A stretch of DNA of 24,000 nucleotides from Dyella sp. (GCF_051962475.1 NZ_JBQCCF010000064.1:58284-82283); one strand, 5' to 3'; shown: positions 11,315 through 14,814, counted from the first letter of the stretch. The notes: generated from the sequence alone by a model not told the origin. A program made the numbers and translations.

Positions 11315-12064
11315 TCACACGGTGATCGGCGACGAGAAAGAGCTGCCGCCGCCACCTCCCACGCCGTCGTCCGGGTCCTCGTCCTTCCGCCAGTGCTTGA
11401 CCGGCGGCTTGCATGTCGCCGGCAAGAGGCTCCAGGGATCGACCCAGTGCGAACTGGCCTCCGCGGTCACCCAGCTTTCCGAAAACCGAATGCCGAGATA
11501 AGTCAGTACCGCTCGACACAGAGGACAGATCGGTTTGCTGACGCCGATGCGCTCGATCTCGCGCCCCGGGTGTTTACCGCGCAACAGATAATGCAGCACG
11601 GCATACATCTCTGCGTGCAGATGCGAGCCCCCGCCGGGCTTGAACGTGAGATCGTGATCGGCGTAGTGACGGGTGCCGTACTCCTCCATCGCGTTCATGA
11701 AGCGCTGCGCGAATACGACATGACGTCCATTGCTTTTGCGCACCACTGCGGTAACGCACTGGTCACCCCGGCCTTGCCAGTTGTAGGCGTTATGAACGTT
11801 GTAGGCCACGTCATCGAGGGACGACCGGTTTGAGCTGGTGGTGGGCGCCGCCCCCAGCAGCGCCGCGCTGGCGCGGGCGACGATCTGGCGTCGATGCTCT
11901 GCCTCGCGCTCGCGTTGCGCGAGCTCCTGTCGTCGACGCTCTTCACGCAGTTCCTGGGCGTCACTGGGTGTGAGACGAACCCGCCCCCGCCGGCGGGAGC
12001 AGTCGCGCGCATGGCCGATCCCGTCGGCAGTCAGGTTTTCGCGGCACTCTGGACACCTCGCCAT
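11315..12064 (-). CDS. Zn-knuckle + charged helix + deaminase-fold protein (249 aa, deaminase C)
   Basis: The ATG at 12064 has a perfect SD (AAGGAGA). The N-terminus is MARCPECRENLTADGIGHARDC (C4, C7, H18, C22). An Arg/Glu-rich segment follows (ELREERRRQELAQREREAEHRRQ). The core carries GGSHLHAEMYAVLHYL (H150-A-E152) followed 27 residues later by KPICPLCRAVL (C180-x2-C183), which is the H-x-E...C-x-x-C zinc/catalytic signature of the cytidine-deaminase-like superfamily. The tail is Gly-rich (GVGGGGGSSF). The track's 340-aa version is a 5' over-extension into the upstream gene. Confidence 0.65.
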   Translation of the reverse strand: MARCPECRENLTADGIGHARDCSRRRGRVRLTPSDAQELREERRRQELAQREREAEHRRQIVARASAALLGAAPTTSSNRSSLDDVAYNVHNAYNWQGRGDQCVTAVVRKSNGRHVVFAQRFMNAMEEYGTRHYADHDLTFKPGGGSHLHAEMYAVLHYLLRGKHPGREIERIGVSKPICPLCRAVLTYLGIRFSESWVTAEASSHWVDPWSLLPATCKPPVKHWRKDEDPDDGVGGGGGSSFSSPITV

Positions 12065-12209
12065 CGGATATCTCCTTTGAAAGCATTGGACTTCATCGCT
12101 CCGATCAGCGCTCGATCCCGACAGGGTTTCCCGGTGGCGGCAACGCGAGCACCAAGGAGCTGGTCCCCGGCGACACGTTGCTCGATTCCCACAGAGAATC
12201 GGCAGCGGC

Positions 12210-12605
12210 CTATTGCAACTCTGGCCTGATCCGGTAGGTGACATCCGGCCCCCAGCCACCTGCCTGCTCAAGCCATTCAAGGCAGTTGTCACATGGCGTC
12301 CAGAGCTCGGCGCCGTCATAACCCGTGGGGCGCCCAAACGTGATCCGGCTCAAGTCGATGACGTAACCAGCGCGCCTGATGTACCAGAGCAACTTGGACA
12401 GTGCCTGGGCTTCAGCGCACGCCCATGGAGAGCGCCGGAGTTCATTCACGGCGTTGATGTGCGCATACAAGGCCGGCGCGTAGGCTCGCACGTTGATCGA
12501 CGGCGCCCGCCTGTCATTGACGGGACGATCCACGGCATTTTCGCCGCGTGAGAAAATGGGCCCGTGGTTGTGGCCGTGATTGAAATCCGCAGTAATGGTC
12601 GGCAT
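12210..12605 (-). CDS. Minimal deaminase-fold-like protein (131 aa, deaminase B)
   Basis: The ATG at 12605 has a perfect SD (AAGGAGG). It contains SPWACAEAQALSKLL (C63-A-E65) and LWTPCDNCLEWL (P104-C-x2-C108), a C-x-E...P-C-x-x-C pattern with 38 residues between. The N-terminus is His-rich (FNHGHNHGP). Only about 23 residues follow the PCxxC, so the fold would be unusually compact. Confidence 0.5.
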   Translation of the reverse strand: MPTITADFNHGHNHGPIFSRGENAVDRPVNDRRAPSINVRAYAPALYAHINAVNELRRSPWACAEAQALSKLLWYIRRAGYVIDLSRITFGRPTGYDGAELWTPCDNCLEWLEQAGGWGPDVTYRIRPELQ

Positions 12606-12882
12606 TCGATTCCTCCTTTGCCTTCATCAACCTTGACAACATTTCGGGCGAGTCGACGACGGGCCCGATCCTTCCGTATGCCACCCTGACCGCCCACCTG
12701 ACATACCCGCAGGAAGAAACATCGGCCCGTTGAACGCGGTTATCGCACCGGCCTTGTGCGCCCAAAGCGCCCGAATCAAACTGGCACCACGGACGGCCGC
12801 ATCGACGCCATTTTCTTGGACAGCAGCCCTGTCCCGGCCAGAGCCATGCCTGTGCCTCCTTCTGTCCAGCGCTCCGAAAGGC

Positions 12883-13584
12883 TCAGCTCACATGGCCCAG
12901 CGCCTTGGCGTAGTTCTTCGCTGCCAGCTTCAGGCCTGCGTTGTTGGACGGATCGGTGGCTACCGAGGCGCAATTGCTGAGCGTATGCGTGGCCCCCGAA
13001 TAAAGTTTGTAGCCGCCATTGGGAATACGCAGCGACGTGACAGCCGCCAGCGTGCCTAGATCGGGCGGTGGCTTAGGCAGGTAGCCACTGATGGTCTGCA
13101 GGGATTGCAGCACCTGGTTCTTTTTCAAACTCAGCGTGAGGAAGGCCGGCGCCGGGAACAGGCAGAACGGATTGCCGCCGGCGCCCGGAATGTCGTAACC
13201 GGTCAGTGCGGTGTAGTTCTCCTTGTCGTAGTTGCATTCGACCTCGTACTGGAAGTCGACGCCGGGACAGGCCAGCACGAAGCGCCTCACCGCGTCCTCG
13301 AACTCGTACATGAAAGGGTGGTTGGTGCCCGAGGTCAGCGTCACCAGATTGTCGGCATCGTCGCCCTTGCCGCCCAGCGCGTTGCCGATCAGGTGCCCAC
13401 GGTTGTGATGGGCAGGACAGCTGCCGTCGAGCCAGCCGGGAGGATTGATCAGATTGCTGGGCCCACTGCCGCCGCCCATGTTGGTGGAGTTCAACACCAC
13501 AGTCGCCTTGGTCACCACCGTGGCGGTGACCTTGTTGACCCAGGTGCGGCTGATGGCGGATTTGGTGAAAACGGGTGTGCACAT
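12883..13584 (-). CDS. Standalone His-Me finger nuclease, Endonuclease_NS_2-like (233 aa)
   Basis: I chose the internal ATG at 13584 (AAGGA upstream). The track's 324-aa ORF overlaps the upstream gene. The motif block SCPAHHNRGHLIGNALGGKGDDADNLVTLTSGTNHPFMYEFEDAV matches the (D/N)RGH-LI-x3-LGG-x5-NL-x-(P/T)-x5-N-x5-E pattern of toxin-type DNA/RNA non-specific endonucleases such as the YqcG C-terminal domain. Confidence 0.7.
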   Translation of the reverse strand: MCTPVFTKSAISRTWVNKVTATVVTKATVVLNSTNMGGGSGPSNLINPPGWLDGSCPAHHNRGHLIGNALGGKGDDADNLVTLTSGTNHPFMYEFEDAVRRFVLACPGVDFQYEVECNYDKENYTALTGYDIPGAGGNPFCLFPAPAFLTLSLKKNQVLQSLQTISGYLPKPPPDLGTLAAVTSLRIPNGGYKLYSGATHTLSNCASVATDPSNNAGLKLAAKNYAKALGHVS

Positions 13585-13640
13585 GACGGGCGTCCTTGCG
13601 TGTACGGATGAGGGATGTGATCGGCTCGTTGCAGCGCCCG

Positions 13641-14294
13641 TCAGGTGGTGTACATCGCCGTCCCGGCGGTGGCCGGAAACAACAGCCAGGTATTGCCCGG
13701 CAGGCTGTCGTACTTCTTGTCGAAATAGATGAGGATGGTGATGTTCTTGCTGGCTGCCAGTGCGCGGTAGCGGGCGCAGCACGAGAGGCACGGGCGCGTG
13801 GTTTGCCCAATGCCCAGCAGGGTCACGCCGGTCAGACTCCCAGAGATGCTCTTCCACAACGCGCGTTCGGCGCAGTGCGAGGCGGTGCTGTTTATCGCGA
13901 ACGGCGCGTTCGAGGCCAGGTCGGTCTTGGCCAGCTTGCTGGTGTCGTTGTCGTAGTTGGCGCTGAAGGCGTTGAAGTAGATCGCGTTGCGATCGCTGCC
14001 GCCGGCCGGCACCTCGATGGCGTCGTAGACCGCCCCCAGGCAGGCGGCGTTCGGCAGACCGTGCTGGCCACCCAATGTTGAAAGCGTGCTACCGGTGACC
14101 AGGTTGGCCGCCGTCAGCGCGGTGGTGGCCGCGTTGTCCCATTCGGGCACGTCGGAGGTATCGCGTCCGGTGGTGGTGGCCGTTACCACCAGGTCCCACC
14201 CTTTGTTCTTCCCGCACTTCGTGCACTTGCCCGGCTTCTTCGTTGCGGTGACTACCTCGTTGCATTTGTCGTTCTTGCACTTGTAGTTGGCCAT
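13641..14294 (-). CDS. Zn-ribbon + Thr-rich linker + CDA-like deaminase-fold protein (217 aa, deaminase A)
   Basis: The ATG at 14294 has AAAGGAG 8 nt upstream. The N-terminus is MANYKCKNDKCNEVVTATKKPGKCTKCGKNKGW (C6, C11, C24, C27). The core carries STASHCAERALWK (13866-13877 encodes HCAE, checked on the DNA) and, 24 residues later, RPCLSCCARY. CAER-ALWK resembles the CAERxALFK helix of small cytidine deaminases as I recall it. Two predicted terminal strands follow (ITILIYF, TWLLFPA). High GC3 codon usage argues for a real gene. Confidence 0.7.
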   Translation of the reverse strand: MANYKCKNDKCNEVVTATKKPGKCTKCGKNKGWDLVVTATTTGRDTSDVPEWDNAATTALTAANLVTGSTLSTLGGQHGLPNAACLGAVYDAIEVPAGGSDRNAIYFNAFSANYDNDTSKLAKTDLASNAPFAINSTASHCAERALWKSISGSLTGVTLLGIGQTTRPCLSCCARYRALAASKNITILIYFDKKYDSLPGNTWLLFPATAGTAMYTT

Positions 14295-14367
14295 GGCCTT
14301 GCTCCTTTCATGCGCCCGATCTTGGATCGGCTCGCGCCGGGGACGCGTTCGACCGCTGGCTGTCGCG

Positions 14368-14814
14368 TCACGACCAGCGGGTAGGTGGTTGCCCGGTACC
14401 TATCCGGCCGCTGGCCGTCGGCGCTACAACGATGTCGCCGAGATAACCGAACTTGATGTTCACGCTGTTCCAGGTGGTGGTATCGAATTCCTGCAACTTC
14501 TCGAAGTCACCGTCCAGCTCGCCAATGAACGCGTATATCGGCGCAATCGTCGTGCCGTCCCAGACGTTCCGCGCGCCGATCAGGTAGATCGCCGAGACCG
14601 TTCCAATCAGCGCCTGCTTGGAGCGCATGTTCTGCACGACCTCGAGCGGCGCCACGCTCTTCATCCCCTGCACCGGCCGGGAGAAATGCCCCCCGATGAC
14701 GTACGCCGGGTCCTTGTAGACGACGGTAAGGGTCATGCAGGTATTGATTTCCGGATAGACGATGTCCTCGCCACCTGCGTGGCAGGCACCTGTCTGGCCT
14801 TCGTTGAGTCGCAT
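14368..14814 (-). CDS. CheD/CNF1-like Cys-His protein (148 aa), a candidate deamidase or alternatively an immunity protein
   Basis: I chose the ATG at 14814 (AGGAGA upstream). IVYPEINTC26MTLTVVYKDPAYVIGGH43FSRP has the same C-x16-H-x3-P spacing as the CheD active site (Thermotoga CheD Cys27/His44, recalled from memory). An exact IGARNV hexapeptide (aa 79-84) matches the CheD-family iG-x-RN signature. The C-terminal FDTTTWNSVNIKFGYLGDIVV parallels CheD EDTGGNRARSVEYNIETGKLLV. This is a by-eye alignment only. Confidence 0.45.
   Translation of the reverse strand: MRLNEGQTGACHAGGEDIVYPEINTCMTLTVVYKDPAYVIGGHFSRPVQGMKSVAPLEVVQNMRSKQALIGTVSAIYLIGARNVWDGTTIAPIYAFIGELDGDFEKLQEFDTTTWNSVNIKFGYLGDIVVAPTASGRIGTGQPPTRWS

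Follow-up and report, generated by a model that had tools for sequence, protein, structure and literature searches.

What does a type VI secretion system (T6SS) keep in the space between clpV and PAAR when the small enzymes encoded there have no recognisable immunity genes beside them? The question is raised by a stretch of 24,000 nucleotides from Dyella sp. (GCF_051962475.1 NZ_JBQCCF010000064.1:58284-82283), which was analysed as a whole and is referred to here as the window. Between positions 11315 and 14814, counted from the first letter of the window, five small genes follow one another on the minus strand. A preliminary description had read them as a battery of standalone deaminase, deamidase-like and nuclease genes in the effector slot of a T6SS cluster. 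We call these genes P1 to P5. Our analysis leads us to favour, with a confidence a little above even, the reading that P1 to P5 are independent, standalone and immunity-independent cargo-toxin cassettes of a group-3 T6SS of the TagJ/Fha type. At least three of them, P2, P3 and P5, encode putative nucleic-acid-modifying or -cleaving enzymes.

The five genes are P1 (14368-14814, 148 aa), P2 (13641-14294, 217 aa), P3 (12883-13584, 233 aa), P4 (12210-12605, 131 aa) and P5 (11315-12064, 249 aa), all on the minus strand. Independent gene calls on identical metagenome contigs return the same five products, and the gaps between the genes are 73, 56, 277 and 145 nt, as first described. Third-position GC (GC3) across the whole window places all real genes on the minus strand, and the overlapping and opposite-strand open reading frames (ORFs) have the GC3 of antisense frames. 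The preliminary description gave each gene its own strong Shine-Dalgarno site. An AGGAG-type site does lie 6-9 nt ahead of P1, P2, P4 and P5, but the one ahead of P3 is a weaker AAGGA. All five products are predicted to be soluble proteins of 15-28 kDa with no signal peptide or membrane segment, and none is fused to PAAR, Rhs, MIX or VgrG. Protein searches assign the host to Dyella/Rhodanobacter, and we take it to be a Dyella near D. ginsengisoli. The complete block is intact and collinear in Dyella ginsengisoli Gsoil3046 (locus L013), at 91% nucleotide identity. The ratio of non-synonymous to synonymous substitution rates (dN/dS) in that comparison is 0.03-0.08 for the five genes, and it is 0.06-0.11 for the three genes shared with a Rhodanobacter metagenome-assembled genome (MAG; locus L011, AP031382.1). 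Gene by gene the values are 0.08 for P1, 0.04-0.11 for P2, 0.06 for P3, 0.03 for P4 and 0.04 for P5, equal to or below those of the core T6SS genes. Because the arrangement is intact and collinear in D. ginsengisoli at such low dN/dS, it is not a chance pattern of ORFs. P1 to P5 are functional genes under strong purifying selection and not decaying remnants.

The surroundings were identified with Pfam as a complete T6SS cluster that extends across the window in the order TssC, Hcp, TagJ/ImpE, TssE, TssF, TssG, ClpV, seven small genes, PAAR, a TPR-methyltransferase, VgrG, DUF6931, Fha, TssK and TssL. The position of the battery between clpV and the PAAR/vgrG genes thus holds as described, with two corrections. 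Two further small genes, encoding proteins of 337 and 145 aa, separate P5 from PAAR, and the PAAR/vgrG module is itself divided by the TPR-methyltransferase gene, which had gone unmentioned.

Two of the five products can be assigned directly to a family. P3, described from the outset as a His-Me nuclease, is of the NucA type and matches Endonuclea_NS_2 (PF13930) with E = 1.3e-13 and 51.7 bits against a cut-off of 27. Its core covers approximately residues 6-137 and contains an NRGH motif and, later, a TNH motif carrying the downstream metal-binding Asn; beyond this core the protein carries a 96-residue C-terminal extension. At 36-42% identity, this core resembles the C-terminal toxin domains of RHS and type VII secretion system toxins from Streptomyces. 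It also matches a standalone Agrobacterium nuclease whose next gene encodes a SUKH (SMI1/KNR4) immunity protein. P3 shares with the 153-aa nuclease of Agrobacterium vaccinii pB7.6 42% identity over 80 residues, the RGH motif and the standalone format. P3 differs from the A. vaccinii nuclease, which has an SMI1/KNR4 partner, in its 96-residue extension and in lacking a downstream immunity gene of the SUKH or any other type.

P5, which had been described as a Zn-knuckle deaminase, matches OTT_1508_deam (PF14441) over residues 149-213 with E = 2.5e-8 and 34.2 bits against a cut-off of 27. Within this domain HAE lies at approximately residues 162-164, and the sequence GVSKPICPLC places GxxK just ahead of CxxC. 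We assign P5 to the OTT_1508 clade because the PF14441 score is above the gathering threshold and both HxE and the GxxK-CxxC signature given for this clade in PMC3239186 are present. The remainder of the protein consists of a putative N-terminal Cys/His knuckle (C4, C7, H18 and C22), a charged linker and a Gly/Ser-rich tail. Housekeeping roles as a cytidine deaminase (CDA), TadA or dCMP deaminase were checked and rejected; NCBIfam gave no match, and P5 scores 14.5 bits against Pfam dCMP_cyt_deam_1, below threshold. Anti-phage defence or a phage origin was likewise rejected, as PADLOC returned nothing and PHROGs gave only a weak match of P3, to a family of unknown function.

The zinc motifs noted earlier, HCAE...PCLSCC in P2, CAE...PCDNC in P4 and HAE...CPLC in P5, are all present, and an all-against-all BLASTP comparison found no similarity between the three proteins, in keeping with the earlier description. 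P2 combines a zinc ribbon with a deaminase fold, an assignment borne out by invariant motifs, the topology of an AlphaFold model and Foldseek matches. Its N-terminal ribbon is formed by C6, C11, C24 and C27, which the alignment shows to be kept in the homologues. The C-terminal deaminase-fold domain contains C141-A-E143 and P168-C169-x-x-C172, and C141, E143, P168, C169 and C172 are invariant over 21 sequences, down to 22% identity. These motifs stand at the start of two predicted helices, 142-153 and 170-182. The AlphaFold model (predicted local distance difference test (pLDDT) 71, predicted template modelling score (pTM) 0.66) has the order helix1-strand1-strand2-helix2-strand3-helix3-strand4-strand5, with strand4 and strand5 forming a C-terminal hairpin. 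The top Foldseek match of this model is the dsDNA deaminase toxin DddB/BaDTF3 (9k3e_B; probability 0.95, E = 0.015), with further matches to APOBEC3, DYW and SsdA. No Foldseek match reached E <= 0.001, so the structural support is moderate. We therefore consider, with moderate confidence, that P2 is predicted to adopt a deaminase-superfamily fold with its catalytic residues intact.

P2 has no match to any Pfam or NCBIfam family, and none to Pfam Pput_2613-deam even at E <= 10; a P2 profile compared with the PDB sequence of 9k3e_B gave E = 0.85. The toxins DddA (BaDTF1), SsdA (BaDTF2) and DddB/Pput_2613-like (BaDTF3) are C-terminal domains of large Rhs/PAAR-type toxins with cognate immunity (PMC7901873, PMC13346905), and the Pput_2613-like clade is marked by HTE in helix 2 and PCxxCK in helix 3 (PMC3239186). 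P2 resembles these toxins in its predicted deaminase fold, in its association with a T6SS and in having DddB as its best structural match. In contrast to BaDTF3 it is a standalone protein of 217 aa with a zinc ribbon, has CAE in place of HTE and PCLSCC in place of PCxxCK, and has no immunity gene. As the HTE and PCxxCK signatures are absent we file P2 as a new clade and not as BaDTF3; it also fits none of the clades listed by Iyer, Zhang, Rogozin & Aravind (2011, PMC3239186). An exhaustive hidden Markov model search of 1.84 billion representatives found 27 P2 clusters, all of them standalone proteins of 65-263 aa. On this modelled fold, P2 would found a rare new deaminase clade with a core of approximately 130 residues. 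A homologue 47% identical to P2, from an organism of 60% GC, lies directly after the C-terminus of ClpV.

P4 is a smaller protein, for which a minimal deaminase-like identity had been proposed. Its motifs C63-A-E65 and P104-C105-D-N-C108 are invariant in four sequences, P4 itself and three homologue clusters, and hhalign against the P2 family brings the CAE and PCxxC motifs of the two into register, at E = 0.08. The motifs stand as described, and it is from them that the identity derives: P4 has no family match and no match in PDB profile searches, and the 62 residues ahead of CAE leave little space for helix1-strand1-strand2. In our reading P4 may well be a shortened deaminase. It occurs without P3 or P5 in L022/L023, directly after clpV. 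The segment containing P4 and P5 (10956-12881) behaves as a single unit of presence and absence, being missing from the otherwise collinear locus of the Rhodanobacter MAG and present in D. ginsengisoli, and no flanking repeats were detected around it.

The CheD-like label given to P1 was not borne out by closer comparison. P1 is a soluble 16-kDa protein with nine homologue clusters. Its invariant Cys26 and His43 lie on a predicted beta-hairpin with a spacing of 17 residues. It has no match in Pfam, NCBIfam, PADLOC or PHROG. Pfam CheD was not matched at E <= 10, and three profile searches of PDB sequences gave neither CheD nor CNF1. The AlphaFold model is poor (pLDDT 52), and its Foldseek matches are weak and of cytidine-deaminase or JAB-like type; CheD does not appear among the matches listed for this low-confidence model. 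CheD sequences taken from annotated replicons do have their C33 and H50 at the same spacing and in a similar local pattern, and hhalign aligns Cys with Cys and His with His, over the hairpin only, at E = 0.08 and a probability of 0.7%. P1 is thus like the CheD/CNF1 deamidases in the spacing of its Cys-His hairpin, with no significant sequence or structural match to them. Four tests of a CheD identity (Pfam, PDB profiles, AlphaFold with Foldseek, and hhalign) yielded only this non-significant hairpin alignment, and we keep the resemblance as a lead suggested by the motif.

The same Cys-x15-17-His hairpin is found in divergent slot proteins of 164, 168, 178, 193, 194 and 217 aa, and an alignment of this P1-like family shows the Cys and His to be invariant across 16-25% identity; homology among these proteins is defined by a motif-centred alignment and weak hhalign scores only. 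Members lie at 11124-11618 in L022, 2047-2553 in L027, 849-1430 in L016, 9411-9944 and 10866-11519 in L033, and 13153-13737 in L015. They recur between clpV and PAAR, sometimes two to a locus. From the invariance of the Cys-His pair over so wide a divergence we infer that P1-like proteins would be enzymes more than binding-only immunity proteins, and that P1 itself may be a Cys-His enzyme.

The absence of recognisable immunity genes, central to the preliminary description, is upheld. A search for known immunity families in Pfam, NCBIfam and PADLOC gave no match for any of the seven slot proteins, the Pfam and NCBIfam searches covering SUKH, Imm, Tsi and other immunity families, and the gaps of 56-277 nt contain no credible ORF. 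Related clusters do carry such pairs and other effectors, which lie in either the tssG-clpV or the PAAR-vgrG interval. L024 encodes a Tse2 ADP-ribosyltransferase and a Tsi2-like gene at 2594-3318, between tssG and clpV. L022 has an NlpC/P60-like protein with a Tsi1-like gene at 13433-14343, L011 a GH19-like hydrolase with LprI at 14603-16438, and L027 a muramidase with a neighbouring 164-aa gene at 6215-7479. Lipase_3 effectors are found in L015 (15203-16369) and L024. Since the same T6SS lineage carries adjacent pairs elsewhere, the lack of immunity genes is peculiar to the slot's nucleic-acid enzymes.

The slot corresponds to a region already described. Group-3 T6SS clusters of Xanthomonadales consist of two structural blocks split by a variable insertion of 2.2-15.6 kb, said to hold putative effectors and/or regulators, and Dyella clusters are closest to the T6SS of X. 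citri (PMC6653060). The Dyella insert was left uncharacterised in that study (Bayer-Santos et al. 2019, PMC6653060). The cluster in the window is like that of X. citri in having TagJ, Fha, a variable insertion between the blocks, and conserved genes of unknown function after PAAR and vgrG. The insertions differ in content: that of X. citri holds the EcfK/PknS regulators, the predicted effectors being an acid phosphatase and an EEP protein (PMC6653060), and here there are deaminases and a nuclease. The reading of this region as a T6SS effector or variable slot therefore agrees with the published group-3 architecture.

We recovered approximately ten Dyella/Rhodanobacter versions of the slot, which are given below in the order clpV to PAAR with bare numbers standing for protein lengths in amino acids. 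The window and L013 both read P1, P2, P3, P4, P5, 337, 145, with L013 having approximately 830 nt extra between 337 and 145 that contain a 116-codon ORF. L011 reads P1, P2, P3, 337 and has no P4+P5 segment. In L015 the slot contains P2, an HExxH protein, 296, P1 and 194; in L024 it contains 122, 72, 296, P1 and 194; and in L027 it contains 122, 138 (DAE...CPSC), the P1-like 168, P2 and an HNH protein of 156 aa. L022/L023 have P4, 177 and the P1-like 164. L007 has an EEP-motif protein, P2, an OTT_1508-like 219, a dCMP_cyt_deam-like 152 and a kinase; L009 has P2, an OTT_1508 protein of 179, 309, 157 and a kinase; and L033 has an EEP-motif protein, P2, an OTT_1508 protein of 179, 169, the P1-like 178, 163 and 217. 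L014, whose contig ends upstream, has 245, an HExxH protein and P2. The EEP (SDHxPV) and HExxH (metalloprotease) labels are motif-based, as Pfam gave no such family. The 296- and 177-aa proteins were considered as PD-(D/E)xK nucleases and rejected, the motif having no Pfam, PDB or pairwise support. The small deaminase-type genes of these versions lie at 11533-12725 in L007, 10697-11236 and 12426-12899 in L009, 1508-1924 in L027 and 7706-8245 in L033.

A genome-neighbourhood comparison, proposed as a check on the battery, thus finds other small toxin-type genes recurring between clpV and PAAR in other genomes. Since the slot versions carry other small standalone toxin-type genes, the battery in the window is one state of a recurrently refilled island, and this island is unusually rich in deaminases. 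Wherever a locus with a P2 homologue extends far enough to tell, the homologue lies in this slot. P2 is kept in the slot in nine of the 11 long loci; the two without it, L022 and L024, have otherwise complete T6SS clusters. The proteins of 152-157 aa that resemble dCMP_cyt_deam/XOO_2897 show 97% identity between two loci, compared with only 62% for the P2 proteins encoded there.

Base composition adds a further view of the island. The G+C content of the window is 65-72%, with a dip between approximately 11000 and 15000 where it falls to 0.62-0.65; the core genes have 0.68-0.72. P1, P3, P4 and P5 have a GC3 of 0.71-0.77 and core genes one of 0.87-0.95, and the values of P2 (0.88) and the 337-aa gene (0.93) are native-like. 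The lower GC3 suggests that P1, P3, P4 and P5 were acquired later. Integron-like or repeat-flanked cassettes were rejected, the search for repeats having turned up no meaningful ones flanking the genes and only those internal to PAAR.

How might such proteins act? If they are cargo toxins, these soluble proteins of 15-28 kDa would be loaded non-covalently onto the Hcp/VgrG/PAAR projectile and would act in the cytoplasm of the target cell, deaminating or cleaving DNA or RNA. Immunity-independent secreted deaminase toxins have been predicted for the OTT_1508, XOO_2897 and AID/APOBEC-like clades (Iyer, Zhang, Rogozin & Aravind 2011, PMC3239186), which occur in endosymbionts, Xanthomonas, Burkholderia and some free-living bacteria, and arrays of cassettes that include deaminases of several clades and NucA-type nucleases have also been described (PMC3239186). 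The slot proteins would join this immunity-independent class. They are like the toxins of that study in being small deaminases with no adjacent immunity gene and tied to a secretion system, with P5 a member of the OTT_1508 clade, and unlike them in that several unrelated deaminases and a nuclease, each encoded by its own small gene, here follow one another within the core of a T6SS cluster. Because they are assigned to the immunity-independent class, their targets would be non-kin, either eukaryotic grazers or distant bacteria; alternatively the proteins could be inactive in the producer through latency. Eukaryotic grazers are an obvious candidate given the precedent of X. citri, whose T6SS protects against Dictyostelium and does not kill bacteria (PMC6653060). 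To a eukaryotic target we would give roughly a third of the confidence that we place in the cargo-toxin reading itself.

Several findings support a role of P1 to P5 as cargo toxins. The genes lie within a complete T6SS cluster and share the strand of its core genes, each behind a Shine-Dalgarno site. P3 and P5 score above the Pfam gathering thresholds for toxin families, the P3 core resembles toxin tips, and P2 has a predicted deaminase fold with invariant CxE and PCxxC. The recurrence of toxin-type genes in the slot, the low dN/dS, the lack of immunity families and the precedent in PMC3239186 count in the same direction. Several observations weigh on the other side. Secretion of the five proteins is itself inferred, and Pfam found none of the effector markers or adaptors MIX, PAAR/Rhs fusion, DUF4123 or DUF1795. 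A toxin that acts on DNA or RNA in the cytoplasm and has no immunity partner would be expected to damage its producer and the producer's kin. Strong purifying selection and the core-like divergence of P2 are atypical of arms-race toxins: across loci P2 is 65-98% identical, diverging at the same rate as TssG and TagJ (57-95%) and the methyltransferase. P1 and P4 have no assigned fold. The T6SS type is not purely anti-eukaryotic, since related clusters carry antibacterial toxin-immunity pairs. Distant members of the P2 family have non-T6SS neighbours, on contigs too short to be informative.

A bolder version of the cargo-toxin reading, which we regard as doubtful, would make the slot a dedicated arsenal of compact nucleic-acid editors and cleavers, including the P2 clade and the P1-like family, exported without classical immunity and with non-canonical self-protection. 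In such an arsenal the producer could be protected because the substrate or a cofactor is absent from it, by latency until delivery, or by a conserved modifier encoded in the cluster, such as the TPR-methyltransferase.

Three other explanations have to be weighed against these. Part of the battery, namely P1-like genes and possibly P4, could be unconventional immunity that neutralises neighbouring toxins, or orphan immunity left behind when a toxin was lost, in which case the locus would consist of toxin-immunity pairs. The arrangement gives this some appeal, as a P1-like gene adjoins P2 in three divergent versions: P1 is followed by P2 after 73 nt in the window, L011 and L013, the 168-aa P1-like gene is followed by P2 after 76 nt in L027, and P2 is followed by the 193-aa P1-like gene in L016. 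A P1-like gene also lies directly 3' of a protein with a PD-(D/E)xK-like motif, of 296 aa in L015/L024 and 177 aa in L022/L023, although that assignment is motif only; and P1 and P4 are the two smallest of the five and have no family match. Yet the 148-aa P1, 79-96% identical across loci, sits among non-overlapping sets of neighbours, P2 being missing from L024 and the 296-aa protein from the window and L011, and P2 occurs with no P1-like gene in L007, L009 and L014. A dedicated pairing of P1 with P2 is therefore unsupported. We rejected the idea that P1 serves specifically as immunity for P2 or for the 296-aa protein, since the co-occurrence matrix across loci contradicts it; an orphan or promiscuous immunity role for P1-like proteins may be compatible with the same data. 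The invariant Cys and His of the P1-like family point to catalysis and not to binding, P4 keeps its canonical CAE and PCxxC motifs and is found apart from P3 and P5, and matches to immunity families are lacking. On balance we think it unlikely that these genes provide immunity.

A different possibility is that the proteins are not secreted toxins, with P2, and perhaps others, being accessory or regulatory enzymes of the T6SS, or the slot a recombination hot spot for defence or housekeeping genes. The presence of P2 in most long loci, its core-like divergence, its GC3 of 0.88, the strong purifying selection and the lack of immunity genes would all suit such a role, and the slot does hold regulators, a Ser/Thr kinase with TPR repeats being found there in L007 and L009 and also in X. 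citri. We nevertheless judge it improbable: there is no NCBIfam housekeeping match, no PADLOC defence match and no above-threshold Pfam match to CDA/TadA, P2 is dispensed with in two loci that have an otherwise complete T6SS cluster, the families of P3 and P5 are by definition toxin families, and different strains fill the slot with other domains of toxin type. Very improbable, in our view, is that the genes are silent orphan polymorphic-toxin cassettes, serving as recombination templates from which a primary toxin could exchange its C-terminus, with no expression of their own. Arrays of unrelated standalone cassettes beside primary toxin genes are described in PMC3239186, the P3 core is homologous to the tips of RHS toxins, and P1, P3, P4 and P5 have lower GC3. 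However, orphan cassettes of this kind are recognised by a primary toxin, the lack of their own start and a trailing immunity gene, and none of these is found at the locus. There is no primary Rhs, PAAR-fused or VgrG-fused toxin (the PAAR protein has 95 aa and VgrG no extension), all five genes start with ATG and are preceded by a Shine-Dalgarno site of their own, N-terminal domains are present in P2 and P5, the proteins are conserved over their full length (dN/dS 0.03-0.11), and neither flanking recombination repeats nor an immunity gene after any cassette is present.

The remaining genes of the region, all on the minus strand, frame the slot. Upstream, clpV (14944-17679, 911 aa; Pfam AAA_2, AAA_lid_9 and ClpB_D2-small) forms the boundary, and all long related loci have it as a conserved left flank. 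Between its stop and P1 a GC-rich hairpin with a T-rich tract lies at 14875-14893 (minus strand), the count of such sites being at background level. Promoter and terminator scans of the gaps were likewise at background level, and Rfam found no non-coding RNAs in them. Downstream of P5, the 337-aa gene (9954-10967) encodes a Lys/Ala/Gly-rich protein of isoelectric point 9.5 with a Gly-rich hydrophobic segment at residues 204-222 (hydropathy maximum 1.69), a composition with which it could be membrane-active. The 145-aa gene (9378-9815, from the gene call in L001), the last before PAAR, encodes a basic protein. Neither protein matches a family in Pfam or in wider family searches. The 337-aa gene is kept in L011 and L013, and the 145-aa gene is missing from L011.

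The downstream boundary is a standalone PAAR gene (8808-9095, 95 aa), identified by Pfam PAAR_motif on an identical gene in L001 and 82-95% identical across related loci. It is followed by the gene for a TPR and class-I S-adenosylmethionine methyltransferase (7414-8796, 460 aa; Pfam TPR_x and Methyltransf_11/25), which every sufficiently long related locus contains, at 65-93% identity and whatever the slot holds. This protein could be an adaptor or chaperone, a protein methyltransferase or a self-protective modifier. VgrG (5304-7388, start taken from the L001 gene call; Pfam Phage_GPD, Phage_base_V and Gp5_trimer_C) has no toxin extension. Directly 3' of it lies the DUF6931 gene (4750-5289), conserved in all related loci, which matches the conserved gene noted downstream of vgrG in X. 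citri and Dyella (PMC6653060). In L007 (13010-15505) and L009 (13184-15679) the slot kinase, of 831 aa, stands just before PAAR; it is missing from the window and recalls the PknS regulator of the X. citri variable region.

How much of this is new? The preliminary description overstated the novelty, since immunity-independent deaminase toxins and standalone cassettes had been predicted (PMC3239186), and the components, namely T6SS variable regions, standalone toxin cassettes and immunity-less deaminases, are already known or predicted. What is new is the stacked, conserved and immunity-less battery in the core of a T6SS cluster, for which our literature search found no earlier report, together with a candidate rare zinc-ribbon deaminase clade, a diversified family built on the Cys-His hairpin, and the contrast to the canonical toxin-immunity pairs found elsewhere in this lineage.

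DddA, SsdA and DddB became tools for genome editing and footprinting, and each needed its immunity protein for handling. P2 adds a rare and compact candidate clade to the deaminases, with its core of some 130 residues. The battery raises the question of how a producer tolerates putative cytoplasmic nucleic-acid toxins without immunity. It also raises the question of whether the group-3 T6SS of Xanthomonadales, known only for the resistance of X. citri to amoebae, may be armed with nucleic-acid editors. As the cultured soil bacterium D. ginsengisoli Gsoil3046 carries the operon-like block, both questions become directly testable.

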